This document shows, piece by piece, positions 1,879-26,957 of a DNA stretch of 33,212 nucleotides; the stretch's first letter is position 1; each line of letters starts with the position of its first letter. A program made the translations under genes and the position numbers. The stretch is from Anaerolineae bacterium (GTDB lineage Bacteria; Chloroflexota; Anaerolineae; JBHIDP01): assembly GCA_046760185.1 (NCBI GenBank), contig JBHIDP010000002.1, positions 1 through 33,212 of the forward strand, in the 5' to 3' direction. A model generated the notes under the pieces. It saw only the letters and a program-made list of their open reading frames with translations, did not search any database and was not told the DNA's origin.

Positions 1879-1915
1879 TGAAGCTATCATAATAGAGCTC
1901 ACTGAGGGGATATCA

Positions 1916-2279: not shown

Positions 2280-2322
2280 GGTTAAACGCCACGATATGAT
2301 GTCGTTTGCACAGGAAGGGAAC

Positions 2323-8179: not shown

Positions 8180-8595
8180 GCACTGAAACCTTCGAGCCGT
8201 TGGTCATAACCTTCTGTTGCAACTGGTGCTCCTATGCCGGGGCGGACCTGGCCGGGGTTTCCAGGATCCAATATCCGCCGAACATACGCATTATCAGGGT
8301 TATGTGCTCTGGCATGGTGCACCCGAACCTGGTTATGGATGCCTTGACTAAAGGCGCCGACGGGGTGCTCATTTGCGGCTGCCACCCCGGGGACTGCCAC
8401 TACCAGGAGGGCAACCTAAAGGCCGAGGCGAGGGCCGATGCCATCAAGCTGATGATGGAGGACTTCGGTATCGAAGAGGAGAGGTTCAGGCTGGAGTGGG
8501 TGTCCGCCTCTGAGGCGAGCAGATTTGCTCAGGTCGTGACCGACATGGTGTCCCAGATCAAGGCCCTAGGCCCCAGCCCGTTCAAAACTTTCTAG
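8176..8595 (+). CDS. mvhD: MvhD-like (methyl-viologen-reducing hydrogenase delta subunit family, [2Fe-2S])
   Basis: Translation from the ATG at 8176 gives MSTETFEPLVITFCCNWCSYAGADLAG...MCSG...ICGCHPGDCHY. The ATGA overlap with the hdrA stop indicates coupling. The track ORF from 7987 is a frame extension inside hdrA. Confidence 0.9.
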   Translation: MSTETFEPLVITFCCNWCSYAGADLAGVSRIQYPPNIRIIRVMCSGMVHPNLVMDALTKGADGVLICGCHPGDCHYQEGNLKAEARADAIKLMMEDFGIEEERFRLEWVSASEASRFAQVVTDMVSQIKALGPSPFKTF

Positions 8596-8606
8596 GGGGA
8601 GAGCAG

Positions 8607-8807
8607 GTGGAATTGGCAAGGACGTTTGGCGGCAAGAAGTTCATGTGGGACGGAAGGGTTTACGAGGATCAAAAGGAAGCCCAGGAGGTTGGTCAAAAGT
8701 ACAGAGGCGACGGCTTTGAGGTCGAGCTGGTTGAGGAAAACGGACAGTGCTTCTTATTCACCCGGAGGGTGGTTAAAGAAGTGGTAGTTGAGGGACAACC
8801 AATCTGA
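8607..8807 (+). CDS. small hypothetical protein (66 aa) between mvhD and mvhG
   Basis: GTG start with GGGGGAGAG upstream. The product is soluble and charged. I recognise no family for it. Confidence 0.45.
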   Translation: MELARTFGGKKFMWDGRVYEDQKEAQEVGQKYRGDGFEVELVEENGQCFLFTRRVVKEVVVEGQPI

Positions 8808-8822
8808 AAGGAGGTTTAAGTC

Positions 8823-10648: not shown

Positions 10649-13186
10649 CTAGTTTCTCTTTAAATGCTTGTTCACCAGCACAGCCATGCTCACCATAAGT
10701 AAGAAACCAATAGACGGACAAAATGGTCTGCGTGGCTCAACCTCTTCGGTTATTTTTTCTTCATCAGTCGGTTCTACAGTTGGTTCTTCGGTCGGTTGTA
10801 CAACCACCTGTGTTGCTGTCGGGGTGATCTCGATTCTGGTCACCTGATAGAAAGCTACATCTGTGTCATTGACCCTTTGATTGCATGGGAAGGTGATACT
10901 GCTATCAGATATTGTTGGGGTGATTGTCTTAATCAACCGGTTATCACGGTCGTATGCCATTACACTGATCGGATCTGAGGAACTCCAATTTGGCAGCATG
11001 TCTAATGTGATGTCTGTATCGGGTCCCATTGGATGTCGAACGACAATGTCCTCCGCATTACGTTGCTCGATGATGAAGTGATCTCCCTCGCTAAGAGGCA
11101 CACCGTTATATGCGGTGAATATGCCAGCGATCAGGTTGTCAAGCGAGCTTGTGACGAACACACCATCCGACGACAAGGTATACTCATCTACAGTGTATGT
11201 ATTCGTTGTATCCCAGTTCTTGAGCACGCTGATGGTCTCATCATCAGTTTCGAAGGTGCTGAGTGTGACATTATCGGGCAACTCATCGTAACCAGTCATC
11301 CGCGCACCGACGTAGCGGGAGGAAACGTGCGCCTGGAAATCTGTGACCACATTGACCCAGGGACTGGGCAGGCGATGCTCAGGGGGACACATAGGAGGAG
11401 CGCAGATATTGAAGCGGTCCATGTAACCGAAGGCCAGATTCACACTGAGGTCGTATTTGGAGGGGTGCCACTCCCAGATTCGGTAATGGAGGCTCTTGTC
11501 ATGCATCAGCAGCGGTTCAGCAGCATATGAACGCCAATTACCCTCCCCCCACCATTCTTTGCCAAGTTCATCGCCTTCAAAATATATGAAAGTGCCCATA
11601 CCCCCAATGGCATACTCGAGGATGCGGTCGTAGCCGGATTCAACGACGATGTGGACATCGCTGTAGGTGCGGACGTGCTCGAGCCAACCCTCGGAGAAAT
11701 CCATCGGGCTGGGCGCGCTGGGGTTGAAGTCGTACTCCCATGGAAAAGCACCGATCACATCGTGGTAGATCAAGTCGCTGGGAAGGACTTGGGTCATATC
11801 CTGGATATATTGGTCCAAACGCTGTTTCACATAAGCTGGGTGTGGAGAGACATTGAAACCGCAAGCATCCGGACCCCAACAGTAACGCTGCGGCTGTCCA
11901 CTCTCGTCCAGCACAGCCACGTCGGTGATGGTCAGCGGAGGGCTCAAGCTTGAGAACCCCTGGACCGTCGGCGACCTCTCATTCCACCACACCGCCTGGC
12001 TGATGGGCATCACCAGATGCCCCATTTCCTGAGCCGCCTCGATCGCCTGCCGGAGGTCCTCGGTTGTGCCCCATTGGGGATCGGGTGGTAGGAAGTCGGG
12101 ATCGATGGGATCCCAGAAGGGCGCGATGAGGGTCGACCCGGGAAGTTGTGCGAACAACTGGGGCCATGAACCAAAAGTCTGGGGGACGGTCATACCGGCA
12201 CCGATCCAGCCCATGGGAGACCGGGCCACGGCCTCGAACTTATCGCCCAACTTCTGCTGCACCGATGGGTATGCCGCCACGGCGTTGTCCGCCCGATACG
12301 CCTGTATGATTTCGACGAACGATCCCGAAACCCTCACCCGCACTGGGGAACCTCTCCACAACTCACCATCGGCTTTCCATGCAGGTAATTCGCGAGTCAG
12401 CACCGTGGTATCGGTGAATTCAGGGTGAGGTGAGATCTGAAGCATTGCAGGTCGCACGGGACCGCTGGGGTGCAGGCCGTACAGGGCCAGGCTGCCTCCT
12501 TGCATCTGCAAGACCAGATAGTCTGCATGAAGATCCCCAGGATACCTAGCCCGGTATGACCGTCCCTCAGTGAAGAAACCGGACTGCAGTACGATACCTG
12601 GATGAAGATACGGCAGCAGCACTTCCTCGATCTCGTTTGCGGCAAAGGTTAGTTCTACTGGGAAGTTAACCATTATCAATGGATAACCCCATCGGTTGTC
12701 GATGGTGAGTTGCATATCAAAGTAGGGTCCCTCTGTAATTTCAAATGTCACCATAGCCTCAACTTGGCGGCTCATCATCGGATCAGGGGTGTACTGAAGG
12801 ATCAATGTGTTCGTGGCATCCTCCCAAACGTAGTCGAACTGATTCGGACCCGCAGGAGAGTACACGGCTGAAAACTGGAATTGATCGGCTGGATCAGGCA
12901 CATTTGTGAATTCGACCATCCACAGTAGGTGGCCAGCAGGCCCAGTCCCCTCCTGTGAACCCGGCATAACCCTCTGACCAGTGGTCTTGTCGATGATGTA
13001 GGCGATGGCTCCGTGTTGTTTGCTTAAACCTAACTCATAGTAATTCTGGTTCCCTACAACAATTACATCAGGGTTTGAATCATCGAAATATATGGATGGT
13101 GATTGGGCATAACAAGTCCGATGAATGGACCCAGCAAAGACAAGTATGAGTATCAGAATAAACAACGATATTTGAATACGCTTCAT
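10649..13186 (-). CDS. large secreted, C-terminally membrane-anchored protein of unknown function (possibly glycoside-hydrolase-like)
   Basis: 845 aa. AAGGAGGGG RBS. Signal peptide MKRIQISLFILILILVFAGSIHRTCYAQ. A Pro/Thr/Glu linker (QPTEEPTVEPTDEEK) precedes the hydrophobic helix IGFLLMVSMAVLV and a basic tail KHLKRN. The enzymatic assignment is only a weak impression from W/Y-rich motifs. Confidence 0.8.
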   Translation of the reverse strand: MKRIQISLFILILILVFAGSIHRTCYAQSPSIYFDDSNPDVIVVGNQNYYELGLSKQHGAIAYIIDKTTGQRVMPGSQEGTGPAGHLLWMVEFTNVPDPADQFQFSAVYSPAGPNQFDYVWEDATNTLILQYTPDPMMSRQVEAMVTFEITEGPYFDMQLTIDNRWGYPLIMVNFPVELTFAANEIEEVLLPYLHPGIVLQSGFFTEGRSYRARYPGDLHADYLVLQMQGGSLALYGLHPSGPVRPAMLQISPHPEFTDTTVLTRELPAWKADGELWRGSPVRVRVSGSFVEIIQAYRADNAVAAYPSVQQKLGDKFEAVARSPMGWIGAGMTVPQTFGSWPQLFAQLPGSTLIAPFWDPIDPDFLPPDPQWGTTEDLRQAIEAAQEMGHLVMPISQAVWWNERSPTVQGFSSLSPPLTITDVAVLDESGQPQRYCWGPDACGFNVSPHPAYVKQRLDQYIQDMTQVLPSDLIYHDVIGAFPWEYDFNPSAPSPMDFSEGWLEHVRTYSDVHIVVESGYDRILEYAIGGMGTFIYFEGDELGKEWWGEGNWRSYAAEPLLMHDKSLHYRIWEWHPSKYDLSVNLAFGYMDRFNICAPPMCPPEHRLPSPWVNVVTDFQAHVSSRYVGARMTGYDELPDNVTLSTFETDDETISVLKNWDTTNTYTVDEYTLSSDGVFVTSSLDNLIAGIFTAYNGVPLSEGDHFIIEQRNAEDIVVRHPMGPDTDITLDMLPNWSSSDPISVMAYDRDNRLIKTITPTISDSSITFPCNQRVNDTDVAFYQVTRIEITPTATQVVVQPTEEPTVEPTDEEKITEEVEPRRPFCPSIGFLLMVSMAVLVNKHLKRN

Positions 13187-14928: not shown

Positions 14929-16287
14929 TTAACCACAGTTAGGATTCTTCTTGGCCGACTTTCCATTCTTGCACTTCCCTGTGCCAGAATCCTTCTCGCT
15001 GTCTGCACTGCTATCCGCTGAGCCGGAACCTCCTGAGTCAGGACTGGTGGAGCTTGCCTCGATGGTGAGGCCCTGCTTGACGTAGGAGGCATTGCCCGCA
15101 GAGTTGATGGCCCTGACCTCTATGATGTGGCTGCCCACGGTCAAGGTGGGGGTGAAGGAGAAGTACTCAGTGGCGGAGTCGAAGGCTCCGTCGCTGGCTG
15201 AAGCTGGCTGCCAGGCTCCACCGTCAACCCTGAACTCTACCTGAGCGATGGTGTTGATGGTGACATCGGCATGGGAAGGGGAGTTGAACGGGATGTCATA
15301 AGTAGAGCCGGTGAAGGTTGGGTTGGTGGTGGAGTTAATGGAGATGGCCGGGGTGGTGTCAATGACATCGGGAATGGTGTCGTTGTCACGGTCCCAGAAG
15401 CCGACCTGGCCGCTGGCGTAGTAGTCGAGGGCGCTGTGGAGGTAAGGGGCGGTCTGGCCGCGCATGATGCTCTCCTCGTTGGAGAGGGCGGGGCCGAACA
15501 TAGTGTTGCCGTTCTGAGCGTCGAGGTAGCCGCTGGTGGTGGTGTAAGGGATCTGGGCACCCTCGTACTGATCGAGGGCGTAGAAGATGTGGCCGATTTC
15601 ATGGCTGGCCAGGGCATCCATGTTCTCGATGGAGTAGGTGCCGTTGTCGAAGGTCATGACCATGAAGGGGCCACCGATGTAGGTGTAAGAATAGTAGGCG
15701 TTATCGGCGAAGAAGCCATCGGGGTCGTTGAGGCTGTCAACGACGAAGATGGTGAAGGCCCAGTCGGCGTTCAGTTTCTTTCGGAGGGCGTTGTTGAAGC
15801 TGTAGACCATTTCGGTGTGGCTGGTGCCGGGGTGGCCGAGAGCTCTCATGGTTTGGCTGATCCAGAGGGACTCCTCGGCCTGGGGGTGGTTGATGGGCTC
15901 ATAGCCGGTGGGGACGCTGTTGTGAACGTCGAGGATGAACTGGACCTGGCCATTGGAGCGGGCGGTCCACCACTTGAGGGCGGCTGAGATTTCACTGAGG
16001 ACCTTGGCCTGGCGATCGGGAGACCAGTTTTCGGTGGAAGGCTCGTTGATGCCGACGCTTTCGGGCAAGATGACGCCGACAGCCACACGGCCGATCATGA
16101 ACTCGCTGGTCTGGTAGTAGCCAGGGATGTAGATAGGGGCCGGGGCAGCGGCGATTTCGGGCTGCTCTGCTTTCTCCTCGGGGCCCTGAGCGTAGGCGAC
16201 TGTGCCGCTGAAGGGTAGCAGTCCGCTCAAGAGCAGCATGGTTATCAGTATGACACTGCCTGCTTTGATCATCCATTTGCTTCGCAT
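14929..16287 (-). CDS. secreted zinc metalloprotease, metzincin-like (HExxHxxxxxD plus Met-turn), with a C-terminal Ig-like domain and a Ser/Gly/Asp-rich then Lys-rich tail
   Basis: The start is placed at MRSKWMIKAGSVILITMLLLSG (GGGGAGAGA RBS), whereas the track ORF extends to 16359. The signal peptide ends AYAQG. Other features are HEIGHIFYALDQY, SIMRG, VEFRVDGGAWQPASASDGAFDS and the tail GKCKNGKSAKKNPNCG. Confidence 0.8.
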   Translation of the reverse strand: MRSKWMIKAGSVILITMLLLSGLLPFSGTVAYAQGPEEKAEQPEIAAAPAPIYIPGYYQTSEFMIGRVAVGVILPESVGINEPSTENWSPDRQAKVLSEISAALKWWTARSNGQVQFILDVHNSVPTGYEPINHPQAEESLWISQTMRALGHPGTSHTEMVYSFNNALRKKLNADWAFTIFVVDSLNDPDGFFADNAYYSYTYIGGPFMVMTFDNGTYSIENMDALASHEIGHIFYALDQYEGAQIPYTTTSGYLDAQNGNTMFGPALSNEESIMRGQTAPYLHSALDYYASGQVGFWDRDNDTIPDVIDTTPAISINSTTNPTFTGSTYDIPFNSPSHADVTINTIAQVEFRVDGGAWQPASASDGAFDSATEYFSFTPTLTVGSHIIEVRAINSAGNASYVKQGLTIEASSTSPDSGGSGSADSSADSEKDSGTGKCKNGKSAKKNPNCG

Positions 16288-16448
16288 TTTTTCTCTCCCC
16301 CAATCTGTTTTTCGATTTTTTTCATCATCTGCCCCCAGCATACCGTAACTGGCAGGCAAAATATAGAGGCCACGGTCCCGACCCAGCCTGCCAAAGGTCC
16401 CTTCTTTTAGGGACTAAAGTCCTGAAACCACAATTATCGCCATCCCTT

Positions 16449-16476: not shown

Positions 16477-16551
16477 CAGTCTTGAAATCGCATCGCGCCA
16501 ATCGGCACTTTCTTTGTTGTGGTAACAGTCTCCTTCTGTGACTGTGTTGAT

Positions 16552-18618
16552 ATGGATGCCGTATCTGAATTCCTGACCGCAAATATCATATTCGTCTATT
16601 TCTTCTACGGTCTGGCTTTCTTCGCCATGGGGCTAGCCGTGGCCTTGGAATCGGGACGGGGCTCTGAGTTTCGTTTTGCTCAGGCCACACGGCTATTGGC
16701 TTGGTTTGGCCTCCTGCACGGGTCCCACGAGTGGCTGGAGATGTTTCAGAAGATCGCCGAACAGACATCAGGTCAAATCTTTCCCCCCCTTGCTGAGGCT
16801 GCGCGTGTAATCCTGCTGGCTCTATCATTCCTCCTCCTCATCGCCTTCGGCGCCCGGCTAACCTACGGCAAGGGAGAATCCCAGAGGCGGGTCTATGGCC
16901 TGATTTCGATCCTGGGCCTGGTTTGGCTGGGTGGTGTGGTAGGCATCCACCTATTCCTCAATCCAGGGATCGTTGATTTGATCGCTGCCAGCGAGGTATG
17001 GGCTCGCTATAGCCTGGGTATGCCAGGGGCTGTTTTGGCTGCTTGGGCTCTGGTTCTGGAGTGGCTTGCCTTTCGGGAGAGAGGCATGCCCCGCTTCGGT
17101 CGGTATTTGCTCCTGACCGCCATCGCTTTCAGTTGGTACGGGGTCGTTGGTCAGCTCTTCACGCGGCAGAGCATCCTTTTTCCCTCCACGATCATCAACG
17201 ATGTCCTGTTTGTCCGTCTGGCCGGCATGCCAGTTCAGCTCTTCCGAGCCATCATGGCCGGCCTTATGGCCGTCTTTGTCATCCACGCCCTACGCGCCTT
17301 TGAGCTGGAGGGTACGCGGCGATTGGAAGCCGCTCGCCGTGAGGCTTTTGAGATCCAGCGCAGAATGCGCCTGGAGACAGAGCAGTTGAACGAGGAATTA
17401 CGCGCGGCGGCGCGGGACCTATCGGTTCTCTTTGAGATGTCGCGTATGTTGGCCTCAACCCTTGACCTGGATGCCCTTCTCCAGGAGGCCATAACCAAAA
17501 TCGTCCAGATGCTTGAGCCGGTACAAAGTGGCATGATCCTTCTCTACGAAGGAGAGGCGCGTGCTTTGGCCCCTATGGCCAGTTGTGGTTACGGACCCAA
17601 TCCAGCAGACAGTGAAAACTTCGATCTCAGTCAGCGCGTCGGTATTCGTGCGGTCCAAATCGGCCAAACCGTTTGGCACCGGGGAGATGGGAAACTGGTC
17701 GGGGAAAAAGCAGAGATTCTGGTGGTGGAGCAGGGAGGGGAGGTTGCGAAGCAAGGCCCCTCCGACAAAGTGGCTACCACTGTGGCGGTTCCGGTGATCT
17801 CCAAGAGCGGGATTGTCGGTAGCCTTGTCCTTGGAGGCCCATACGGCGTTCCTTCTTTCGCAGCCTCAGATGTTCCCTTGATAGAAGCCCTGGCTGGCCA
17901 ACTGGGGATGACCATCGAGAATGCCCGCTTGTATAAAGATGTGAAACTGAGGGATGAGCTACGAGGCCAATTACTTTACAGAGCGGTTTCGGCTCAGGAG
18001 GAGGAGCGCCGCAGGATTGGGCGGGAGCTCCACGACGAGACCGGTCAGGCCTTGACCGCTCTGGGGGTGGGACTCAGGGGTGTGGAGGAGACACTACTAT
18101 TGGATCCGGACCTGGCCAGAACACAACTGGCGGAACTGAGGGATCTCAGCGTGCAGGCCCTGGAAGAGTTGCGACAGCTCATCTCCGACCTACGTCCTTC
18201 CCTTCTCGATGATCTTGGTCTGGTAGCTGCGGTGCGTTCCTACGCCAAGCGTTTTGGACAGAATTTCTCTCTGGACGTCCAGGTGGAGATCAGCGGTGAT
18301 AGGCGGCGGTTGCCGGCCCAGATCGAGATCGTGGTGTTTCGCATTGTGCAAGAGGGCCTCACCAATGTCGGTCGCCATGCCAAGGCTCAGAAAGTGCTGG
18401 TCAGCCTGAACTTTGGTCCCTCGGTGGTTACGCTCACCGTTGAGGATGATGGGGCTGGTTTCAATCCCGATGAAGTGTTGGGTCCCCAGACAAAGCGACG
18501 GGGATGGGGTTTGCTGGGAATCAAGGAGAGGATAGCTTTGGTGGGGGGGAAGTTCAGCATACAGTCCAGTCCTGGGATGGGGACCAAACTAGTGGCGGAG
18601 ATTCCTATCGGGGGGTAA
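16552..18618 (+). CDS. multi-TM sensor histidine kinase with GAF domain (NarL class, HisKA_3 + HATPase)
   Basis: About 260 aa of hydrophobic helices are followed by a coiled coil, a GAF-like region (LDLDALLQEAITKIVQML...GSLVLGG) and the H-box GRELHDETGQALTAL. DLRP, QEGLTNVGRHA, DDGAGF and GLLGIKER are also present. The start is uncertain: ATG at 16552 or GTG at 16519. Confidence 0.88.
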   Translation: MDAVSEFLTANIIFVYFFYGLAFFAMGLAVALESGRGSEFRFAQATRLLAWFGLLHGSHEWLEMFQKIAEQTSGQIFPPLAEAARVILLALSFLLLIAFGARLTYGKGESQRRVYGLISILGLVWLGGVVGIHLFLNPGIVDLIAASEVWARYSLGMPGAVLAAWALVLEWLAFRERGMPRFGRYLLLTAIAFSWYGVVGQLFTRQSILFPSTIINDVLFVRLAGMPVQLFRAIMAGLMAVFVIHALRAFELEGTRRLEAARREAFEIQRRMRLETEQLNEELRAAARDLSVLFEMSRMLASTLDLDALLQEAITKIVQMLEPVQSGMILLYEGEARALAPMASCGYGPNPADSENFDLSQRVGIRAVQIGQTVWHRGDGKLVGEKAEILVVEQGGEVAKQGPSDKVATTVAVPVISKSGIVGSLVLGGPYGVPSFAASDVPLIEALAGQLGMTIENARLYKDVKLRDELRGQLLYRAVSAQEEERRRIGRELHDETGQALTALGVGLRGVEETLLLDPDLARTQLAELRDLSVQALEELRQLISDLRPSLLDDLGLVAAVRSYAKRFGQNFSLDVQVEISGDRRRLPAQIEIVVFRIVQEGLTNVGRHAKAQKVLVSLNFGPSVVTLTVEDDGAGFNPDEVLGPQTKRRGWGLLGIKERIALVGGKFSIQSSPGMGTKLVAEIPIGG

Positions 18619-18621
18619 TCG

Positions 18622-19281
18622 GTGTCAAAGATCCGGGTGCTGTTAGTTGATGATCATGCCATCGTCCGCGCTGGCCTTCGTATGCTCCTGCAAGCTCAAC
18701 CAGATGTGGAGATAGTTGGCGAGGCCGGGAAAGGGACGGAGGCTATCCAGATGGTGCGGGAGCTGAGGCCCGACGTGGTCTTAATGGACATCACCATGCC
18801 CGACATGGATGGCTTCCAAGCTACCCGGAAGATCAAGGCCCTTGAGCCTGAAACGGCTGTTCTGGCCCTGACTATACACGAGGGTGAAGAGTACTTCTTC
18901 GAGATGCTCAATGCCGGAGCCTCCGGCTATGTGCCCAAGAAAGCGGCCCCCACTGAGCTCGTCTCCGCCATCCGTGTCGTACACAGAGGTGATGTATTTC
19001 TCTATCCACCGTTGGCTAAGGCCCTGGTAAGTGACTACCTGCGTCGTGTGGAGAGTGGAAAGGAGAGGGAGAGTTACGATGGCCTCACCAAACGGCAGCG
19101 CCAAGTCGTGAAGCTCATCGCCCGCGGGTGCCGCAATCAGGAGATAGCAGACCTCCTGGTCATAAGTGTCAAAACTGTGGAACGACATCGCGAGAACATC
19201 TACCGAAAGCTGAACCTCCACAGCCGTGTCGAATTAGTGAAATACGCCATCCAGAAAGGGCTCATTGACCTGGGAGAGTAG
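18622..19281 (+). CDS. response regulator, NarL/LuxR family; close paralogue of the regulator at 1222-1878
   Basis: GTG start. Motifs are SKIRVLLVDDHAIVRAGL...MDITMP, then LTKRQRQVVKLIARGCRNQEIA. It shares long identical runs with the first regulator (IRVLLVDDH, GASGYV, ELVSAIR, FLYP, DYLRRVE, SYDGLT, LVKYAI). Confidence 0.9.
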   Translation: MSKIRVLLVDDHAIVRAGLRMLLQAQPDVEIVGEAGKGTEAIQMVRELRPDVVLMDITMPDMDGFQATRKIKALEPETAVLALTIHEGEEYFFEMLNAGASGYVPKKAAPTELVSAIRVVHRGDVFLYPPLAKALVSDYLRRVESGKERESYDGLTKRQRQVVKLIARGCRNQEIADLLVISVKTVERHRENIYRKLNLHSRVELVKYAIQKGLIDLGE

Positions 19282-19315: not shown

Positions 19316-19349
19316 AAAAAGACCCCATCCTCAGATGGGGTCTTTTTTT
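19316..19349 (+). terminator. intrinsic terminator after the second regulator
   Basis: AGACCCCATC (19320-19329), loop CTCA, GATGGGGTCT (19334-19343), followed by a T run. Confidence 0.75.
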
Positions 19350-19454
19350 GTGAAAGTTGGGATTATTACAGGATTCACAAATGAACTCTAATCTGCTACA
19401 GTGATAATGGAAGGAAAAGGATGGGCAGTTAATCCAGAAAGGAGGGCAGCAAAG

Positions 19455-19802
19455 ATGCTTGAGGATGTACTGATTATCCTGGCTATGTTTGCCCTCCGCA
19501 TCGGTGTACCGATTTTGATTACCATAAGCGTGGGTCTCCTGATCTCGCGATGGGTCGAGAGGGAAGAGAAAGGGACGGTTGAGCGGCCTGAAACAGTGGT
19601 GCCTTTGCCCGATGAAGATGCTCAGACACCGACCCTGCCCCGGCCTCCTTCGGAGATCAAGGACCATGAGCCGAGGCGAGCAGCGTGCCCGGCCTTCCAA
19701 CAAACCCCGGTACCGTGTTGGCTGGCTCTGCAAGTCAGCGGTCAACCTCTTAAGGATGAATGTTTCACTTGTGATGTGTATAGGTTGCGAAAGAGTGCTT
19801 AG
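19455..19802 (+). CDS. small single-pass membrane protein with a 4-Cys C-terminal domain (paralogue P1)
   Basis: AAGGAGGG lies 8 nt before the ATG at 19455. The sequence runs MLEDVLIILAMFALRIGVPILITISVGLLISRW...ACPAFQQTPVPCWLALQVSGQPLKDECFTCDVYRLRKSA. The track ORF from 19401 is an upstream extension. Confidence 0.7.
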   Translation: MLEDVLIILAMFALRIGVPILITISVGLLISRWVEREEKGTVERPETVVPLPDEDAQTPTLPRPPSEIKDHEPRRAACPAFQQTPVPCWLALQVSGQPLKDECFTCDVYRLRKSA

Positions 19803-19835
19803 CAAAATGGCTAGTTTTGGAGCAAGCACTTAGAG

Positions 19836-19917
19836 CCTATCCGAAAACCCAGCAGCGGGGGCTCCCATGCCCCCACTGGGCGGGCGTGGGAGCCAGCCCA
19901 GCTAGTTTTCGGATAGG
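19836..19917. repeat. 82-bp nested palindromic element between P1 and P2
   Basis: The outer perfect 13-bp inverted repeat is CCTATCCGAAAAC (19836-19848) with GTTTTCGGATAGG (19905-19917). The inner GC-rich repeat is GGCTCCCATGCCC (19860-19872) with GGGCGTGGGAGCC (19882-19894). It is flanked by an imperfect direct repeat GCTAGTTTT(C)GGA...ACTTAG. Confidence 0.7.
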
Positions 19918-19951
19918 TACTTAGCAGCCAAAGCTCAAGGAGGTGATAACA

Positions 19952-20152
19952 ATGCAAGACATCGTAATCATGCTTTTCATGCTGATCACACGCATAGGGC
20001 TACCGGTGTTGGCGGTCGTTGTTGCTGGCTACCTGATCGAGCGCTGGTACACCGCCCGCGAGCAGGCGGCCAGTCGGGAGGAGACTTTCTCCACCGGCCG
20101 GACAGCCGATGCCGGATACGAGGAGACCGAGCGAAGGAAAAAGGCTGCCTGA
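19952..20152 (+). CDS. small single-pass membrane protein, paralogue P2 lacking the Cys-rich tail
   Basis: AAGGAGG (19937-19943) lies 8 nt before the ATG at 19952. MQDIVIMLFMLITRIGLPVLAVVVAGYLIERW is followed by a charged tail. Confidence 0.6.
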   Translation: MQDIVIMLFMLITRIGLPVLAVVVAGYLIERWYTAREQAASREETFSTGRTADAGYEETERRKKAA

Positions 20153-20250
20153 TAGTAAACCAACGTCGTCAGCCGCAGATCGGTGCCTTACAGGGGACAA
20201 TCTCTTCGCAGATGCCCTTAGACTGAACAGTTCCGCTAAGGAGGTTCTCA

Positions 20251-21327
20251 ATGAAACTGACTTCTACCCTTGGGCTACTGATGGTAGTTGCAGGGCTCAT
20301 CCTCCTCATGCTGGCCGGGCCGGTTCAAGCCCAGTCCCCGGCGGTGCCGCCCATCCCTCACTCTACAGAAGATCAGACTGATTGTCAGGCCTGTCACAGC
20401 GAAGGGGGAGCAGGAGCACCAAGAAACCCTGAGGACCATGCTGGCCGGTCCAATGAGTCCTGCCAACTATGCCATAAAGTGGACCTAAGCGTATCCACAG
20501 TCGCCTCGGCCAGGGATGAAGCATCGTTGACCCCCGCAGACTACCAGGGCCCTGATTACTGTGCGCCTTGCCATGCAGCGCAGTACGAGCAGTGGAAAGG
20601 GACCTTACATGCCCAGGCTGCTGTTGACCCCAAGTTTCAGGAGGAATGGCTGAAAAGCCGGAAACAAGCCTACTGCTTGGCCTGCCACACCACCGGTTAT
20701 GATGCCAACACCACTAAGTTCGTCTTTGAAGGGGTAACATGTGAATCATGTCACGGAGCTTACAAAGAGGGGCACCCACCGGCGGTGATGGAGGTCAAGG
20801 AAGAGGCTGAGCTGTGTGGCTCTTGCCACACCGGGGTCCATTCTCCGACCTATGAGGAATGGCTTGTCAGCAGCCATGCCAGAGGAAATGTGGAATGTGC
20901 AAACTGCCATTTAGGCCATTCTCTGGACTTGCGGGCTGAGAACCTCTCTGAGTTGTGTGGAACCTGTCACCATCAGGCCTATGAAGGATCGGTCCACTCC
21001 ATTGAGGGCCTGACCTGCAACGGGTGTCACATGTATACGGGGCTCGAAAGGACTGAATTCAGGAGCACAGGGCACACCTTTGAGATCGCCCCTGAGGTCT
21101 GTGCTGGTTGTCATGGCATGATTCACAGCAAGCGCGAACCGAACCTTGAAGCCTCTGTTCAAGAGACTCTTCAAGAGCAAGTGTTGGTTCTTCAAAGACA
21201 GGTTGCCCAATTGCAGGAATCAGCATCCAACAATCTGGGTATGGGGTTGACGGTGGGTATCGTCGGTGGCCTGCCACTGGGGTTTGGAGCAGCCTGGATA
21301 ATTAAGAAGAGAGGTGCTAAGAAGTGA
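20251..21327 (+). CDS. decahaem c-type cytochrome with an N-terminal signal peptide and a C-terminal TM anchor
   Basis: AAGGAGG RBS. There are ten CxxCH motifs (CQACH, CQLCH, CAPCH, CLACH, CESCH, CGSCH, CANCH, CGTCH, CNGCH, CAGCH). The C-terminus has a coiled segment and the helix GLTVGIVGGLPLGFGAAWII followed by KKRGAKK. Confidence 0.9.
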   Translation: MKLTSTLGLLMVVAGLILLMLAGPVQAQSPAVPPIPHSTEDQTDCQACHSEGGAGAPRNPEDHAGRSNESCQLCHKVDLSVSTVASARDEASLTPADYQGPDYCAPCHAAQYEQWKGTLHAQAAVDPKFQEEWLKSRKQAYCLACHTTGYDANTTKFVFEGVTCESCHGAYKEGHPPAVMEVKEEAELCGSCHTGVHSPTYEEWLVSSHARGNVECANCHLGHSLDLRAENLSELCGTCHHQAYEGSVHSIEGLTCNGCHMYTGLERTEFRSTGHTFEIAPEVCAGCHGMIHSKREPNLEASVQETLQEQVLVLQRQVAQLQESASNNLGMGLTVGIVGGLPLGFGAAWIIKKRGAKK

Positions 21328-22115
21328 AGGAGAAGACACGCTTTGCCAGGAGAGATTTCCTTAAGCTGATGGGAGCACTGGGGGCCTCGGCCCTCTTAGC
21401 CAGGTTCGCTTCATGGTCTCCTTTCTTCCATGAGCGAGCTGAGGCCAGCTTTCCCCAGGCGGAAGCTCCCCAGCGGAGAAAGCCGAGGTGGGCTATGGTC
21501 ATAGACCAGGGGAGGTGCATTGGCTGCGATTATTGCACCTTTGCCTGCAAGGCTGTGAATGATACAGCGCCGAACATCTACTGGAACCTCGTCCTTACCG
21601 AAAGCGGGCTACGGGGAGGCCACGTATTTCTGCCCAGACCTTGCCTGCACTGTCAGCACGCCCCCTGCGTCGAAGTCTGCCCGGTGGGAGCTACCTATGC
21701 CAGAGAAGATGGCATCATTGTCATGGACTATAACAAATGCATCGGATGCCGCTATTGTGAGGTCGCCTGTCCCTACGGAGCGCGCTACTTCAACTGGAAA
21801 GAGCCCACCGAGGAGAACCGGTACGTGCCTGCCTGGGGCACGCCGGAAGTAGAGAGACGTCCACGAGGAGTGGTGGAGAAATGCTCCTTCTGCATCCAGA
21901 GGATAGACAGGGGGTTGGCAAGAGGCTTGACGCCAGGGGTTGATCGCGAGGCCACGCCAGCCTGCGTCAACATCTGCCCCGTGGAGGCGCGGTTCTTCGG
22001 TGATTTGAACGACCCTACAAGCAAGGTCTCTCAACTGCTCCGCAGCAGAAGGAGCTTCCGGCTCAGGGAAGACCTAGGAACCGAACCACGAGTTTACTAT
22101 TCGCCACCATCATAG
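21324..22115 (+). CDS. TAT-exported 4x[4Fe-4S] protein of the NrfC/PsrB/DmsB family
   Basis: The GTG start overlaps the cytochrome stop (GTGA). The twin-arginine signal is RRDFLKLMGALGASALL. Cys clusters are CIGCDYCTFAC, CLHCQHAPCVEVCP, CIGCRYCEVACP and CSFC...CVNICP. Confidence 0.9.
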   Translation: MKEKTRFARRDFLKLMGALGASALLARFASWSPFFHERAEASFPQAEAPQRRKPRWAMVIDQGRCIGCDYCTFACKAVNDTAPNIYWNLVLTESGLRGGHVFLPRPCLHCQHAPCVEVCPVGATYAREDGIIVMDYNKCIGCRYCEVACPYGARYFNWKEPTEENRYVPAWGTPEVERRPRGVVEKCSFCIQRIDRGLARGLTPGVDREATPACVNICPVEARFFGDLNDPTSKVSQLLRSRRSFRLREDLGTEPRVYYSPPS

Positions 22116-22173
22116 ATGGTACCACTTACCGTAACCTATGGCCTATCTTTTGTGACTGCTTGAATTGCATTTT

Positions 22174-22527
22174 GAGACCCTTGCATAATTCATGGAACGG
22201 CGTTCCGTCTGCTACGGAGGGGCGTCCCCGCCTCGCCTTGAGCGGTGAGGGCGCCTGGAACGGGGCGAGGACGCCCCTTGGCAGCAAGAGAGGGTTTTCC
22301 TGACCTTTCTTAACTGATTTTATGCAAGGCTCTCTGTATTCATAGAGGAGAGAGCCTTTCATAATTCGCAGGATATCGTTCTATCAGCTAACATGGTATC
22401 CGGAGTCGAGGCTTTCCCTGGCACCTGTGCGCCAGGACAGGTGAGCCGGATTTTGAGAGCCAAAACCGCCTGAAGGCTCCACTCCAGGTGACAAAGCAGT
22501 GTCCTGCTCGATTTATGCAAGGGTCTC
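22174..22527. repeat. about 350-bp structured insertion-like element between the NrfC-like and NrfD-like genes, bounded by 15-bp perfect inverted repeats
   Basis: GAGACCCTTGCATAA (22174-22188) pairs with TTATGCAAGGGTCTC (22513-22527). A second inner copy pair is TTATGCAAGGCTCTC (22320-22334) with GAGAGCCTTTCATAA (22350-22364). A GC-rich hairpin AGGGGCGTCC...GGACGCCCCT lies at about 22225-22280. Confidence 0.6.
22402..22485. repeat. dispersed repeat, copy 1 (long form)
   Basis: GGAGTCGAGGCTTT ... AGCCGG ... CCGCCTGAAGGCTCCACTCC. It shares the 14-nt and 20-nt blocks with 33090-33135. The terminal blocks are mutually complementary at 11 of 13 positions. Confidence 0.7.
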
Positions 22528-22553
22528 CATTTTGGCAAAGTGAGGGGTTCGAC

Positions 22554-23741
22554 ATGTTTGGAAAGAGGATATCGGCAGCCTTCGTTATCTGGGTAGGGGC
22601 CTTGCTGTCGGTCATAGCCGTTGGAGCCTGCGGTGCCTACTTTGTCTTCACCCGTGGCCTGATCGTCACGGGACTGAGTGACGCGGTTCCCTGGGGCCTC
22701 TGGATCACCGTGGATCTATCCTCCATCGCTCTCAGCGCTGGAGCGTTCAGTGTCTCTGCCGCCATCTACATTCTCAAGATGGAGAAGTACAAACCGATTG
22801 GTAGGTTGGCGGTCTTCATCGGCCTGATCGGGTACAGCATGGCAGTTATGACCCTCCTGTTTGACATCGGGCGTCCGGAGAGGTTTTGGCATATTCTGGC
22901 CTTCGGCCAGCCTCATTCGGTCCTGTGGGAGGTAACCTGGTGTATCACTCTGTACCTGGTGGTCTTGATCACAGAGGTAGCTCCTATTGTGGGCGAGACC
23001 AGGATAGTGCAAAGGTTGCCCTTGATCCCCAAACTGACCTACAAATTGCACCAAGCCACGCCCATCCTGGCCGTGGTCGGACTGATCCTGTCCTTGCTTC
23101 ACCAGTCCTCACTGGGTGCCACCTACGGCGTGGTCAAGGCCCGGCCTATCTGGTTCAAGCCCAACATGGCTGTCCTGTTCATCGGCTCGGCCATAGCAGG
23201 TGGTCTATCCCTTACTATCCTGGCCAGCCTTGCTACCTCCAGAATCGCCCGGAGGGAGGTGGTGAAAAAAGAGCTTCTCTTCGATCTGGCAAAGGTTACG
23301 GCTGTGGTGCTGATTGCCTACCTGTACCTGAAGCTCTGGGATACAGTGGGAATGAGCTATACCTATCTCCCCATGCGGAGCGAGAGCTTGGCATTACTGA
23401 CCCGGGGACCATATAGTTGGGCCTTCTGGGGGTGGGAGATCATTTTAGGTGGGGTTGTGCCGGCCGTGATCCTGGCCGTACCCAGGCTGCGTGAGAACAT
23501 CTGGGGACTGTTTACAGCCTGTGCTTTAGTCGTTATCGGTGTGGTTATCAATAGGTGGAACGTCAACATCTCGGGCCTGGTGACCCCTCTCGTGCTCTCC
23601 CCTTCACTCTCCCTTTCCCCGTTGGCACAGTACACCCCGACATGGGTGGAGTGGGTCACTAGCGCTGGTGTCGTTGCCTATGGATTGCTGGCCTACACTT
23701 TGGGTACCAGGTTCCTGCCTATCTTTGTCCAATCTGAGTGA
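22554..23741 (+). CDS. NrfD/PsrC-family polytopic quinone-interacting membrane subunit
   Basis: GAGGGG RBS before the ATG at 22554 (MFGKRISAAFVIWVGALLSV...). About 395 aa with many hydrophobic helices. It sits downstream of the NrfC-like gene. The track ORF from 22488 is an extension. Confidence 0.88.
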   Translation: MFGKRISAAFVIWVGALLSVIAVGACGAYFVFTRGLIVTGLSDAVPWGLWITVDLSSIALSAGAFSVSAAIYILKMEKYKPIGRLAVFIGLIGYSMAVMTLLFDIGRPERFWHILAFGQPHSVLWEVTWCITLYLVVLITEVAPIVGETRIVQRLPLIPKLTYKLHQATPILAVVGLILSLLHQSSLGATYGVVKARPIWFKPNMAVLFIGSAIAGGLSLTILASLATSRIARREVVKKELLFDLAKVTAVVLIAYLYLKLWDTVGMSYTYLPMRSESLALLTRGPYSWAFWGWEIILGGVVPAVILAVPRLRENIWGLFTACALVVIGVVINRWNVNISGLVTPLVLSPSLSLSPLAQYTPTWVEWVTSAGVVAYGLLAYTLGTRFLPIFVQSE

Positions 23742-23800
23742 GGGGATTACCTGAGCCGTCCATTTTCGGAGAGAGCTGATGCTCGAAAGGAGGGATGACT

Positions 23801-24178
23801 ATGTTGGAGTTGATGTTGGACTCTGTCGTTGTACTGTTTATGTTGCTGCTCAGGGTTGGCATTCCGCTGCTGATAACGATTGGCGTGTTTAAACTCATCC
23901 AGCGCTGGCAGGGTCATCAACAAGAAGATATCTTGCAGCAAATCCGTGCGGAGAGGGCCAAAGTTGCTCAGCCGGTGGCCGAGAGGGAAGTCCCCAACAC
24001 AGTTGTGCGTCGTCTGCGCTGCTGGGATGTGATGAGGTGTCCGCCGCCCAAGAGAGACAACTGTCCAGCTTACCACCACTCGTATGTTCCTTGCTGGCTA
24101 GCTATCCGTTTGAGCGAGGGGCAGCTCAGGGAGGAGTGTTATGCCTGCAGGTTCTACGATCTGAGGAAAACGGCCTGA
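23801..24178 (+). CDS. small single-pass membrane protein with a 6-Cys C-terminal domain (paralogue P3)
   Basis: AAGGAGGG (23787-23794) lies 6 nt before the ATG at 23801. The sequence runs MLELMLDSVVVLFMLLLRVGIPLLITIGVFKLIQRW...RCWDVMRCPPPKRDNCPAYHHSYVPCWLAIRLSEGQLREECYACRFYDLRKTA. Confidence 0.75.
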   Translation: MLELMLDSVVVLFMLLLRVGIPLLITIGVFKLIQRWQGHQQEDILQQIRAERAKVAQPVAEREVPNTVVRRLRCWDVMRCPPPKRDNCPAYHHSYVPCWLAIRLSEGQLREECYACRFYDLRKTA

Positions 24179-24253: not shown

Positions 24254-24496
24254 TTAGTCCTTCCCACTGTCAGGTATCCCATCCGCCTGGGCTGATGTCT
24301 CCCCTGCATTTTCCTCGATGCCCGCATCCGCGTCCGAATCTTCAGAATTTGTTGTCAGAATCTGATCCTTCAGTTCAGCCAATGTTTTCCGGATTTCATC
24401 CAACTCTTCGGCATGGAGTTTCTGATACGACTCCAATTGTTGCTCCAAACGCAGAATACGGATGGCAAGGTCGCTCTCTTGGGCTATCCGTACCAC
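24254..24496 (-). CDS. small acidic coiled-coil hypothetical protein (80 aa)
   Basis: GTG start with GGAGG 5 nt upstream. LRLEQQLESYQKLHAEELDEIRKTLAELKDQ has heptad character and the tail is acidic. Confidence 0.45.
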   Translation of the reverse strand: MVRIAQESDLAIRILRLEQQLESYQKLHAEELDEIRKTLAELKDQILTTNSEDSDADAGIEENAGETSAQADGIPDSGKD

Positions 24497-24703: not shown

Positions 24704-25345
24704 CTATATCAACCCTCTTTTGATAGCTTCTGCCACTGCTTGAGCTCGATTAACTACCTCTAACTTGCCCAAAATGTCTTGGATTTTCCTCTTTACCGTT
24801 ACCTCGCTCCAGTAGAGTCTCTTAGCGATCTCCTTGTTGGTAGCCCCTTCAGCGATCAGGCTTAGGACTTGCAGCTCCAGGTCAGACAACTGCGATTCAT
24901 GCCTCGCCTTCTCTTTGGCCAGTTCCTCGAACTGCTGGAGAACCTTGCCTACCAACTGCGGGCTTAACAGGCGTTCACCCTTGTACACGGACCGTATGGA
25001 TGAGGCTAGCATCTCATGGGAAGCGCTCTTGAGCAGGTAGCCATGCGCTCCAGCTTGCAGAGCTCCATACAGATACTCATCGTCATCGTACGTGGTCAAG
25101 ATTATGATCTTCACCTCTGGCTGTGCCCGTCTCAGTTGACGGGCAATCTCTATGCCATTTGGACCGGGCATGAGGATGTCCAGCAGAACTACGTCAGGCT
25201 TTACCTCTCTTACTTGCTCGACGACAGCGAAGCTGGTGCTTGCCTCTCCAACAACTTCAATGTCAGAAAAGCTCGACAACAGACTGCGCAGCCCCTGTCG
25301 TACCACAGGGTGGTCGTCAGCAACCAAAACTCTGATCTTGTTCAT
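24704..25345 (-). CDS. response regulator, NarL/LuxR family
   Basis: GGAG lies 6 nt before the ATG at 25345. Motifs are MNKIRVLVADDHPVVRQGL...LDILMP, then LSDLELQVLSLIAEGATNKEIA. It overlaps the 3' end of the kinase gene. Confidence 0.9.
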   Translation of the reverse strand: MNKIRVLVADDHPVVRQGLRSLLSSFSDIEVVGEASTSFAVVEQVREVKPDVVLLDILMPGPNGIEIARQLRRAQPEVKIIILTTYDDDEYLYGALQAGAHGYLLKSASHEMLASSIRSVYKGERLLSPQLVGKVLQQFEELAKEKARHESQLSDLELQVLSLIAEGATNKEIAKRLYWSEVTVKRKIQDILGKLEVVNRAQAVAEAIKRGLI

Positions 25346-26957
25346 TCTGTACTCCGCCGCTGTGTACATTCTGATCGGATGTAGCTGGAATCCTGAGGAT
25401 TATCCTGGTGCCGTGCCCAGGAGCGGATCGGATCTCTATCTCCCCTCCCATGCTCTCCGCTCTCTGTTTCATGCCCAGCAGTCCCAAACGACCATTAAAA
25501 TCGCGTCCTGCTGCCTCGTAGGCGAATCCTCGACCATCATCCTCCACACTGACTTTCAACTCAGTTGCCCCAAAATCAAGGCGGACTTGGACCGAGGAAG
25601 CTTCAGCATGGGCTTCCGTGTTGTGGAGAGCTTCTTGCACGATGCGGAAGATGGCAACCTCCTTGTCCGGCGGCAGCCTCCACGGCTTGCCAGAGATGCG
25701 CACTGAGCATGAGATGTCAAAAAGTTCATGGTAGTTCACCGCATATCTCTTCAGGGCCGGGATCAATCCTGAGGTATCGAAGCCGGTGGGACGTAAATCG
25801 TGTATGACCCGGCGTGTTTCAGTCTCCACTCTGGTGAGCAGGTCTTGAACAGTCCGCAACCTCTCCGTGGCTTCTTCCGGTTGTGAAGGGAGCCTTTCTC
25901 TAGCGGCCTGGATTTCATAGAGGGCACCAATGATCAACTGTGTCACGCCGTCATGCATATCATGGGCTATTCGGGCCCGTTCCTCTTCCTGGACACTTAT
26001 GGTTTTGGTCAGCAGTTGCTGAAGCTGACTTGCCTTTCGAGCGATCTCCTCCTTTGCCCTGGCCAGTTCCTTGGCCCTTGCCCGTTGCAGTTTCGAAATT
26101 TCCGACTCCAGCCTTGTCTTTTCCTTCAAACTTTGCGCCATGCGATTGAAAGATGTGGCCAGCTCGCTGATCTCATCATTCCCTTTGAGTTCCAGGCGCT
26201 GGTCTAACTCCCCTTGACCAAGCCGTCTCATGGCCTGCACGAGGATCTTGAGCCTGGTCAGAACAATTTGGTTCATCACCAGACTTGCTATCAAAACCAC
26301 AACCACAATTGCGCTCAGGAGGATGGCAATAGTCTCCCTCAGATGGATTCCAATCTCTTTATTGACCTCGGCCATGGAGAAGTCGGCCAGTATCACACCA
26401 CTGATAGCCGACTGGGGATCGTGACAGCTATGGCATTCCTGCCTGTTCTCTACCGGGTTAACATTACGGAGGACTTCCTCTCCACTATCTGTTTTGAAAA
26501 TAACCGTCCTGCTACGTTTCTGGGCTGTGTCCCGCTGGTGGCAAAGCTGGCACGTCGAATCACTGAGGTCTAACCGTTTGCCTATTTCTTCTGCGTTGGG
26601 AGAAGCAGTGATCTTGCCGCTCTTATCAAGAAGGAGGATGCTCACGATATCCTGTTGTTTGCCCAGATCGTTTAAAATGGTACGTAGTTCATCCGGATCT
26701 TGAGTCATCATGCTGTGTTGGAGGCTGCTTTCGATCAAATCGCTTTGCAGTGTGGCGGTTGCTACCCTCTGAGCTATGAGCCGGTCCCGATGGCGAATAT
26801 ACTCAACATAAAAAAGCAGACTTAAGGTGGCAATCAAGGCCACCGATAAGACAAGCACCAGTTTGAAGCTCAGGCTGCGAAAAGTCCCGACAGACTCGAT
26901 ATCTTTAACTTTCAATGACCTTCCCTGTCCTTTGCTCAACTTTAGACCGTGTTCCAA
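25317..26957 (-). CDS. sensor histidine kinase (NarL class) with a two-CxxCH outer sensor loop, HAMP, HisKA_3 and HATPase
   Basis: TM1 is LSFKLVLVLSVALIATLSLLFYV and TM2 is AILLSAIVVVVLIASLVM. CQLCH and CHSCH lie between them. Other motifs are HAMP (RLGQGELDQRLE), the H-box AHDMHDGVTQLI, DLRP and DDGRGF. The start is uncertain: the frame opens at a TTG and there is no ATG before TM1. Confidence 0.88.
   Translation of the reverse strand: MEHGLKLSKGQGRSLKVKDIESVGTFRSLSFKLVLVLSVALIATLSLLFYVEYIRHRDRLIAQRVATATLQSDLIESSLQHSMMTQDPDELRTILNDLGKQQDIVSILLLDKSGKITASPNAEEIGKRLDLSDSTCQLCHQRDTAQKRSRTVIFKTDSGEEVLRNVNPVENRQECHSCHDPQSAISGVILADFSMAEVNKEIGIHLRETIAILLSAIVVVVLIASLVMNQIVLTRLKILVQAMRRLGQGELDQRLELKGNDEISELATSFNRMAQSLKEKTRLESEISKLQRARAKELARAKEEIARKASQLQQLLTKTISVQEEERARIAHDMHDGVTQLIIGALYEIQAARERLPSQPEEATERLRTVQDLLTRVETETRRVIHDLRPTGFDTSGLIPALKRYAVNYHELFDISCSVRISGKPWRLPPDKEVAIFRIVQEALHNTEAHAEASSVQVRLDFGATELKVSVEDDGRGFAYEAAGRDFNGRLGLLGMKQRAESMGGEIEIRSAPGHGTRIILRIPATSDQNVHSGGVQNEQDQSFGC

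Follow-up and report, generated by a model that had tools for sequence, protein, structure and literature searches.

We analysed a 33,212-nt stretch of DNA from an Anaerolineae bacterium (Chloroflexota; assembly GCA_046760185.1, contig JBHIDP010000002.1, positions 1 to 33,212), hereafter called the window, in which three small putative membrane proteins, P1, P2 and P3, bracket a decahaem cytochrome/NrfC/NrfD module. The original prediction, made from the letters alone, had described six co-directional genes in the order P1, P2, decahaem cytochrome, NrfC-like protein, NrfD-like protein and P3. Translation of the open reading frames (ORFs) confirmed all six in that order (Table 1), and together with BLASTP it bore out the further details of that description: three paralogues, an identical C-x9-C-x14-C-x2-C spacing in P1 and P3, an extra CWDVMRC in P3, and a P2 that consists of the helix only, without the tail. 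Pfam domains also confirmed the predicted two-component systems on both sides. Both are of the LuxR type, HK1/RR1 at 16519-19281 and RR2/HK2 at 24704-26957 on the minus strand.

Table 1. Features of the P1-P3 region of the window (HK, histidine kinase; RR, response regulator; HMM, hidden Markov model; TM, transmembrane; TAT, twin-arginine translocation; SD, Shine-Dalgarno sequence; MFE, minimum free energy).
Feature	Position	Strand	Description	Evidence
HK1	16519..18618	+	histidine kinase, polytopic membrane / GAF / HisKA_3 / HATPase	Pfam domains
RR1	18622..19281	+	LuxR/NarL-type response regulator	ORF
Terminator-like element	19316..19347		perfect 14-bp inverted repeat (I11) followed by a T run; parts RR1 from the P1 operon	
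Candidate sigma-70-like promoter	19374..19402	+	TTCACA-17-TACAGT with TG, 5' of P1	consensus scan only, no proof of function
P1	19455..19802	+	115 aa; helix and degenerate four-Cys tail without the first CW..C	helix HMM 4e-16, tail HMM 2e-17; AGGAGG 8 nt before start
Imperfect hairpin in the P1-P2 gap	19829..19924		inverted repeat I4	RNA fold MFE -70.9 kcal/mol, z = -7.0 (folded region 19805-19940)
P2	19952..20152	+	helix-only paralogue	helix HMM 6e-10; AAGGAGG 7 nt before ATG 19952
Decahaem c-type cytochrome	20251..21327	+	ten CXXCH, signal peptide, C-terminal hydrophobic TM anchor	Pfam Cytochrome_C7, c3_2, C554
NrfC/DsrO-like 4x[4Fe-4S] protein	21324..22115	+	263 aa, TAT-type signal	Fer4_11 62.9 bits; NCBIfam DsrO 211 bits vs cut-off 200
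nrfC-nrfD spacer	22116..22553		438 nt, highly structured	inverted repeats I2, I6, I10, I13; 22160-22380 fold z = -4.5
NrfD-like (QrcD-like) integral membrane quinone-interacting subunit	22554..23741	+	395 aa	PF03916 128.5 bits
P3	23801..24178	+	125 aa; canonical member, helix and six-Cys two-CW-like tail	SD AAGGAGG 23787-23793
RR2	24704..25369	-	LuxR-type response regulator, convergent with P3	ORF
HK2	25317..26957	-	HAMP / HisKA_3 kinase, two CXXCH in the periplasmic sensor	Pfam and sequence

BLASTP aligned P1 with P3 over the full length (E = 2e-25), and P2 with P3 across the helix at 47% identity (E = 3e-9). A profile of P3 and P1 was scored by exhaustive HMMER search against 1.84 billion representative proteins. 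At E ≤ 1e-3 it gave 212 clusters (45 at E ≤ 1e-10), nearly all of them 100-170 aa long and matched end to end. Word-indexed homologue search recovered few relatives, one protein with P3 alone and five with a 51-sequence profile. In the alignment of these 51 members, R20, P24, C100, W101, C115 and C118 are invariant, and C76, W77, C82, C90, A92 and P99 are conserved in at least 90%; the Cys positions are thus maintained among homologues, as the original prediction required of a real family. The canonical protein has a hydrophobic N-terminal helix (…L-R-x-G-x-P…, with the Arg and Pro invariant), a helical linker that often reads RLDxRWQxEA, and a Cys-rich tail, which in the alignment follows C-W-x4-C-x7-C-P-A-x6-P-C-W-x~14-C-x2-C. 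Judged by this pattern, P3 is canonical, P1 has lost the first CW..C, and P2 has lost the entire tail. Shortened or degenerate members occur elsewhere too, P0134 (57 aa) and P0141 (71 aa) being two such cases.

Across the 51 members, full-length P matched no Pfam or NCBIfam model at E ≤ 0.01, apart from two isolated, chance-level Pfam matches in single members. The public records at NCBI and JGI label the proteins "hypothetical protein", and literature searches on single-helix subunits of NrfD and on Chloroflexi NrfD multihaem clusters found nothing relevant, in line with the earlier statement that P is not a described component of NrfCD-type complexes. P1, P2 and P3 belong to a real, conserved and unannotated family of Chloroflexota.

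To survey the genomic setting of the Cys-rich tail, species-representative genomes of GTDB were scanned with a back-translated DNA pattern of the Cys motif. The scan returned at least 120 loci (numbered with L), dominated by MerR-type genes. These loci are 8-kb slices, so that absences near locus ends are uninformative, and neighbours were identified by searching with proteins of the window at E ≤ 1e-5, a threshold that distant homologues escape. Among the matches listed, the motif is found in three architectures: ∼70-80 proteins with a MerR-type helix-turn-helix (HTH), 13 small soluble proteins of Dehalococcoidia, and 18 P-type proteins. About four further listed matches are chance matches in high-GC actinobacteria. 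All 18 listed P-type proteins come from distinct Chloroflexota metagenome-assembled genomes (MAGs), which include Anaerolineales, Caldilineaceae, Ardenticatenaceae, Ca. Aquidulcis and others.

NrfD/NrfC genes adjoin P in 16 of the 18 listed P-type loci, and a gene for a multihaem cytochrome (MHC) is also present in 12 of these 16. Window-like NrfD was found by the same test in 2 of the 71 listed MerR-type loci (Fisher p ∼1e-13). P homologues are thus linked to NrfD/NrfC and not scattered, and the suggestion of a dedicated accessory family of NrfCD modules withstood the co-occurrence survey. A pair resembling HK1 and RR1 is adjacent in 13 of the 18 listed P-type loci, and in loci outside the window the RR1-like gene directly precedes the P gene or converges with it. 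Where read from stop-to-stop ORF coordinates, the distance from P to its neighbours is typically 4-10 nt; elsewhere the ORFs and nrfD overlap. One recurrent gene order is HK-RR-P-MHC-NrfC-NrfD, the other is NrfC-NrfD-P facing a convergent RR-HK pair, and the two are united in the window. The convergent RR2 arrangement is repeated in L001 and in the type-B loci L082 and L105.

The look-up of a divergent family member, P0048, gave one more locus (L123), for which the gene calls of the source and Pfam show a histidine kinase, a response regulator, P, a multihaem cytochrome, a Fer4 protein, NrfD and a 43-aa ORF. Since this island sits among housekeeping genes, it is self-contained. Three listed loci keep P beside a two-component system and have no NrfC/NrfD. 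L030 has restriction/modification-like genes (judged by eye) in place of respiratory genes at 1341-3724, which suggests that the respiratory genes were replaced or disrupted by a mobile insertion; L058 has only a convergent 614-aa multihaem cytochrome; in L101 a cytochrome is present. Overall, the P genes are tightly operon-linked to MHC-NrfC-NrfD and to a two-component system.

A helix HMM located helix-only, P2-like ORFs in at least 10 loci besides the window, directly next to the full P gene. L123 has one as well, the 43-aa ORF 3' of nrfD (MLTEIGTVFAGFILRIGIPLL…). These ORFs carry an R-x-G/A/V-x-P motif. Because such ORFs recur, P2 is a conserved component rather than a decayed copy peculiar to this genome, and the helix is the constant element of the family and the tail its optional one. 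The number of helix copies per locus is two to four in total, with three in the window. In four listed loci the P helix is fused to the N-terminus of NrfD, as one copy each in L025 and L094 and as helix-TM-helix in L089 and L097. Alignment of the NrfD N-termini placed the fused helices as extensions ahead of a first transmembrane segment (TM1) that is homologous to TM1 of the window NrfD. No fusion of the helix to a kinase was seen in the loci examined. The gene fusions argue for a physical partnership with NrfD and for a cytoplasmic tail.

The orientation of the helix was estimated from its flanking charges. Family-wide, the mean net charge is -0.9 for the N flank and +0.4 for the C flank, and of the two flanks the C-terminal one is the more positive in 98 proteins and the less positive in 27. 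In the L089 and L097 fusions, both P-type helices have the same orientation and lead into NrfD TM1, and the NrfD N-terminus is positively charged (MFGKR…). These two observations, and the fusion of the Cys domain to a cytoplasmic MerR HTH elsewhere, indicate that the P N-terminus probably lies outside and the tail in the cytoplasm. An AlphaFold2 model of P3, built with the family alignment, has one long helix (residues 2-57) followed by a compact small helical domain with a predicted local distance difference test (pLDDT) score of ∼90 (mean 87.8). A sequence profile search of the PDB with the family profile gave only spurious matches to rhodopsin TM5 (E ∼0.4). In PsrC-type proteins the quinone is bound on the outer side, near NrfC. 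It is conceivable, if speculative, that the conserved Arg-Gly-Pro, which would lie in the outer half of the P helix, contributes to the NrfD quinone site near NrfC.

The original prediction had likened the Cys-rich tail to the two-CW domain at the N-termini of sensor proteins in anaerobes. The likeness holds as distant homology. All 23 domain-only sequences tested, including six P-type tails with that of P3 among them, matched the NCBIfam model NF045718 (two_CW_domain) at E ≤ 1 and essentially no other model, with a best E of 1.4e-7, and the printed alignments run in register from model position 2 to position 71-77 of 80. The scores printed stay below the curated cut-off of 35 bits: P3 at full length gave 10 bits (E = 0.91), the best Dehalococcoidia-type protein 24.2 bits (E = 3e-5) and a Peptococcaceae protein 20.7 bits (E = 8e-4), and none of the 51 full-length family members matched the model at E ≤ 0.01. 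The P tail is ∼25 residues shorter than the 80-position model. The defining feature, two CW motifs in a multi-Cys framework, is present in P3 and the canonical family; P1 has one CW and P2 none. The suggested placement at the N-terminus of sensors did not hold, the P domain being C-terminal to the TM helix and the MerR-type domain C-terminal to the HTH. Membership in the two-CW family was judged from HMM scores alone, since a third homologue search returned almost only Dehalococcoidia "hypothetical proteins". By the curated criterion the P tail is not a member of the two-CW family, and we take it to be a divergent relative of that domain. The tail has no model in Pfam, and literature searches on the two-CW domain and NF045718 found no published function.

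Profile-profile comparison with hhalign related the P tails to the MerR-type tails at 99.4% probability and to the Dehalococcoidia type at 98.4%, values that are inflated because all three groups had been chosen with one Cys-motif pattern. The three groups also share features outside that selection, namely a terminal C-x2-C-x-Y/F and an Arg before the third Cys, and the P-tail HMM matches MerR-type ORFs as well. On these profile matches the P tail and the C-terminal domains carried by MerR/HspR-type regulators are homologous. The conserved Cys residues would allow it to bind a metal or an Fe-S cluster. An anti-sigma factor of the ZAS type was considered and rejected, as the tail has no HxxxCxxC motif and there is no sigma factor gene nearby.

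The MerR-type carriers have an HspR-like HTH (PF13411), usually contain a seventh Cys, and bear only the public name "MerR family transcriptional regulator". Among the matches listed (L003-L122, e.g., L007, L011, L022, L043 and L112) they come from Nitrospirota, Ignavibacteria, Bacteroidota, Desulfobacterota, Zixibacteria, Gemmatimonadota and Planctomycetota. Pfam-confirmed neighbours in the 71 listed MerR-type loci were NrfC-like Fer4_11 proteins (12-14 loci), NrfD (8), Fer4_8 plus CCG proteins of the HdrD/DsrK-like kind (6), Pyr_redox_2 flavoproteins (6) and multihaem ORFs (19), so that any one class of redox neighbour accounts for at most about a quarter of these loci. Literature searches found no experimental characterisation of MerR-type two-CW-like regulators; SoxR is a MerR protein with a C-terminal Cys cluster and offers an analogy. 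The Dehalococcoidia carriers (L016, L027, L051, L076, L078, L116 and others) are small and soluble, with eight Cys and an FWxGK..CW motif. Some of them are arranged in tandem or joined to repeated KIGD…YP.WV domains, and several adjoin NuoE/NuoF-like genes and pairs of a histidine kinase and a LuxR-type response regulator. The fusions to regulatory outputs, together with redox-module neighbours in some loci of each architecture, favour a cytoplasmic redox or metal sensor.

We compared the core of the locus with the known quinone modules that combine a multihaem cytochrome with NrfC and NrfD, which are NrfBCD, QrcABCD, DsrJOP of DsrMKJOP, the core of alternative complex III (ACIII), and the Geobacter Cbc-type complexes. 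The NrfD-like protein covers profile positions 2-311 of 313 in PF03916 at 128.5 bits (cut-off 25.8), and with an nrfC-like gene upstream it falls in the NrfD/PsrC family. The core trio shares its domain content with the systems named, that is, a decahaem cytochrome c, a TAT-signalled 4x[4Fe-4S] protein and NrfD, and it differs from them in lacking a molybdopterin-like subunit (QrcB/ActB), a second NrfD and DsrMK. The menaquinone reductase QrcABCD is marked by the molybdopterin-like QrcB and the hexahaem QrcA. Assignment to QrcABCD is not supported by scores of 292 bits versus 570 for the QrcD model and 185 versus 400 for QrcC, and there is no QrcB-like ORF in or near the cluster. The NrfD equivalog model gave 45 bits versus 348, which sets the locus apart from Nrf. 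ACIII has two NrfD-like subunits (ActC and ActF), a fused ActB, the pentahaem ActA and the monohaem ActE, whereas the cluster has a single NrfD-like gene, the NrfC-like protein (263 aa) is separate, and the one cytochrome is decahaem. The markers of DsrMKJOP are a NarI-type cytochrome b (DsrM), a CCG protein (DsrK) and the trihaem DsrJ. An assignment to DsrO/DsrMKJOP was rejected: DsrO scored 211 bits versus 200, but DsrP only 81 versus 350, and genes for DsrM, DsrK and DsrJ are absent from the neighbourhood. The core trio is an ordinary representative of the multihaem/NrfC/NrfD class.

To our knowledge there is no P-like helix or two-CW subunit in the NrfBCD, Qrc, Dsr, ACIII or Cbc systems. 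One-helix subunits are known on polytopic cores, and extra single-helix subunits have been seen in cryo-electron microscopy structures of ACIII. The P proteins follow the same concept, with several copies that are sometimes fused; no sequence or structural relationship to the ACIII-type subunits was found, and P adds the Cys-rich domain. Co-sensing and flux-sensing, where a transporter or a respiratory enzyme signals to a histidine kinase, are known from BceAB-BceS, DcuB-DcuS and cbb3 oxidase-PrrBA. The P locus has a gene arrangement comparable to that of BceAB-BceS-type systems (a membrane machine, a small accessory protein and a kinase/regulator pair), which is a pure analogy without homology. 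The features by which we delimit the family, an R-x-G-x-P helix, a six-Cys tail, and adjacency to MHC/NrfC/NrfD and a LuxR-type two-component system, are all found in P3. The P family, the helix-NrfD fusions and the membrane-tethered two-CW-like form are not described in the databases and literature searched.

On balance we lean towards the reading that the P proteins are accessory subunits of a Chloroflexota-specific decahaem/NrfC/NrfD complex, docked on NrfD and equipped with a cytoplasmic metal or Fe-S sensor domain. P1, P2 and P3 would each cross the membrane once, with the N-terminus out and the C-terminus in the cytoplasm, and the helix with its …L-R-x-G-x-P… motif would pack against NrfD in the membrane. 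The tail, where present, would form a cytoplasmic six-Cys module, complete in P3, reduced to a four-Cys remnant in P1 and missing in P2. It would bind a metal or an Fe-S cluster and serve as a redox or ligand sensor. Through it, the state of the complex or of the cytoplasm would be coupled either to how active the complex is or to the HK1/RR1-type system that would control the operon. A bolder version, which we put forward tentatively and hold to be doubtful, is that P physically bridges the quinone module and its own two-component system. Such a three-component circuit would sense flux, with the two-CW domain as an Fe-S/thiol switch that reports turnover or the quinone pool to the HK1-type kinase, and the two-CW domain would do the same job on MerR/HspR-type proteins elsewhere.

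Several observations weigh against NrfD-docked subunits with a sensor tail. NrfD proteins have no cofactor by which electrons or an obvious signal could cross the membrane, and the module itself faces the periplasm. The tail is absent in P2-like proteins and degenerate in P1, and so it is not essential for the role of the helix. A Foldseek search of the AlphaFold2 model against the PDB found no structural relative that would hint at a cofactor. To these must be added the sub-threshold two-CW scores and the inflated hhalign probabilities described above. Finally, as L030, L058 and L101 keep P with a two-component system without NrfC/NrfD, P may belong equally to the signalling pair.

This last point leads to the main rival, that the P proteins are membrane-tethered two-CW co-sensors of HK1/RR1 in a three-component system, not stable subunits of the complex, and that their position in the operon reflects autoregulation. 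Besides those three loci, it draws on the HK1/RR1-like pairs adjacent in 13 of the 18 listed loci and in L123, on the position of P, in both arrangements, always at the junction of the two-component system and the Nrf-type genes, and on the attachment of the two-CW-like domain elsewhere to signal-output domains such as the MerR HTH. Against this, the fusion partner of the helix is NrfD in four loci and a kinase in none of the loci examined, helix-only forms without the sensor are conserved, and the 4-10 nt gaps to the MHC gene or the overlap with nrfD suggest translational coupling with structural genes. We regard co-sensors of this kind as unlikely, and the idea can be combined with a docked subunit if P bridges NrfD and the kinase. 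The same fusions bear on a role in assembly or maturation, an option named in the original prediction beside sensing: P would aid insertion of NrfD or act as a checkpoint when cofactors are loaded into NrfC or the cytochrome, and would not remain in the mature complex. Small membrane proteins do lead or trail the operon, and a Cys-rich cytoplasmic domain could hold a metal or cluster transiently. A permanent helix-NrfD fusion in four loci is unlike a transient chaperone, however, the presence of this Cys domain on DNA-binding proteins of the MerR type speaks for sensing and not for cofactor delivery, and two to four helix copies per locus look like structural stoichiometry. The evidence favours a sensing subunit over an assembly factor, which we consider improbable.

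An electron-transfer function of the tail is in our view highly improbable. The tail would then be a cytoplasmic Fe-S domain that links NrfD to Hdr-like partners, as DsrK or HmcF do in Dsr and Hmc, a proposal that could appeal to the six conserved Cys, to an HdrC/HdrB/HdrA-like cluster 11-17 kb upstream in the window, and to an NrfC-like subunit that scores above the DsrO cut-off. The gene content, however, has no haem-b membrane subunit of the DsrM/NarI type to carry electrons across the membrane, and Hdr-like genes are not conserved neighbours, their place being taken by housekeeping genes in L123. P2-like members do without the domain altogether, it contains no CCG or ferredoxin-type motif and has no Pfam match, and the MerR fusions fit a sensor better. 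We give hardly any credence to the remaining possibility, that the small ORFs, P2 and the helix-only ones especially, are untranslated and resemble each other through chance hydrophobic composition. The ORFs are indeed short, and hydrophobic helices can yield spurious HMM matches, as with rhodopsin TM5. Chance composition would not readily explain the invariant R-x-G-x-P and the Cys/Trp positions kept family-wide in 212 clusters, the syntenic recurrence in more than 18 MAGs, or the independent gene calls for P0001, P0048 and the 43-aa ORF, and the Shine-Dalgarno sites are strong.

Few quinone-interacting units of anaerobic respiration are as widespread as the NrfD-type modules (Nrf, Psr, Qrc, Dsr, ACIII and Cbc). 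If the P proteins are NrfD-docked subunits as proposed, one-helix subunits with a Cys-rich domain would be a new class of component for these complexes, and their fusion to NrfD would provide a concrete candidate for cytoplasmic sensing or regulation of machines that face the periplasm. One small domain without a published function links the Chloroflexota P proteins, the HspR/MerR-two-CW regulators and the NuoEF-adjacent proteins of Dehalococcoidia. Because the three groups share it, one biochemical result on its metal or redox properties would inform many genomes. Should the flux-sensing bridge prove true, it would give the widespread two-CW domain its first function. Annotation rules are gained for several hundred "hypothetical proteins", together with a marker by which multihaem/NrfCD clusters of this type can be recognised in Anaerolineae-like bacteria that are thought to carry out extracellular electron transfer.

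Start codons in the cluster were assigned as follows. The positions of the Shine-Dalgarno sites, all three of which are strong, favour ATG 19455 for P1, ATG 19952 for P2 (the ORF opens at GTG 19943) and ATG 23801 for P3, and from the last of these P3 has 125 aa, equal to the length of the independently called P0001. NrfD most likely starts at ATG 22554, which gives 395 aa as in the gene call of L001. The TAT signal of the NrfC-like protein scored 16.9 bits with TAT_signal, under the cut-off of 22.7; RRDFLK is present in the sequence. Two structured intergenic segments interrupt the gene row (Table 1). Neither the hairpin at 19829-19924 nor the spacer at 22116-22553 had an Rfam match above noise or further copies in the window, and there is no convincing ORF in the spacer. 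In L123 nrfC and nrfD overlap by 4 nt, compared with 438 nt between them here. The P1-P2 hairpin may be an element of the REP/MITE kind, or it may serve as an attenuator or stabiliser inside the operon; for the nrfC-nrfD spacer, an inserted element or a site of regulation or processing is conceivable.

Other genes of the window were annotated in passing. The periplasmic sensor of HK2, which lies between two membrane segments, gave weak matches to NapB, Cytochrome_C7 and Mcp40H-20_sensor, and HK2 looks like a sensor kinase that contains haem c. An Hdr-like cluster at 2296-9746 encodes a Fer4 protein and a CCG protein that resemble HdrC and HdrB, respectively, a fused HdrA/GltD-like flavoprotein of 1479 aa that bears several FAD/NAD and Fe-S modules, and a protein like the NiFe-hydrogenase small subunit (Oxidored_q6). 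It is preceded by a pair of a HisKA_3 kinase and a LuxR regulator at 141-1878. Two ORFs on the minus strand, 10649-13186 (845 aa) and 14929-16359 (476 aa), had no Pfam match at E ≤ 1e-3. Between P3 and RR2, 24254-24496 on the minus strand encodes an 80-aa coiled-coil-like protein with no meaningful Pfam match, and the near-identical contigs L001 and L002 have a gene call for this ORF too.

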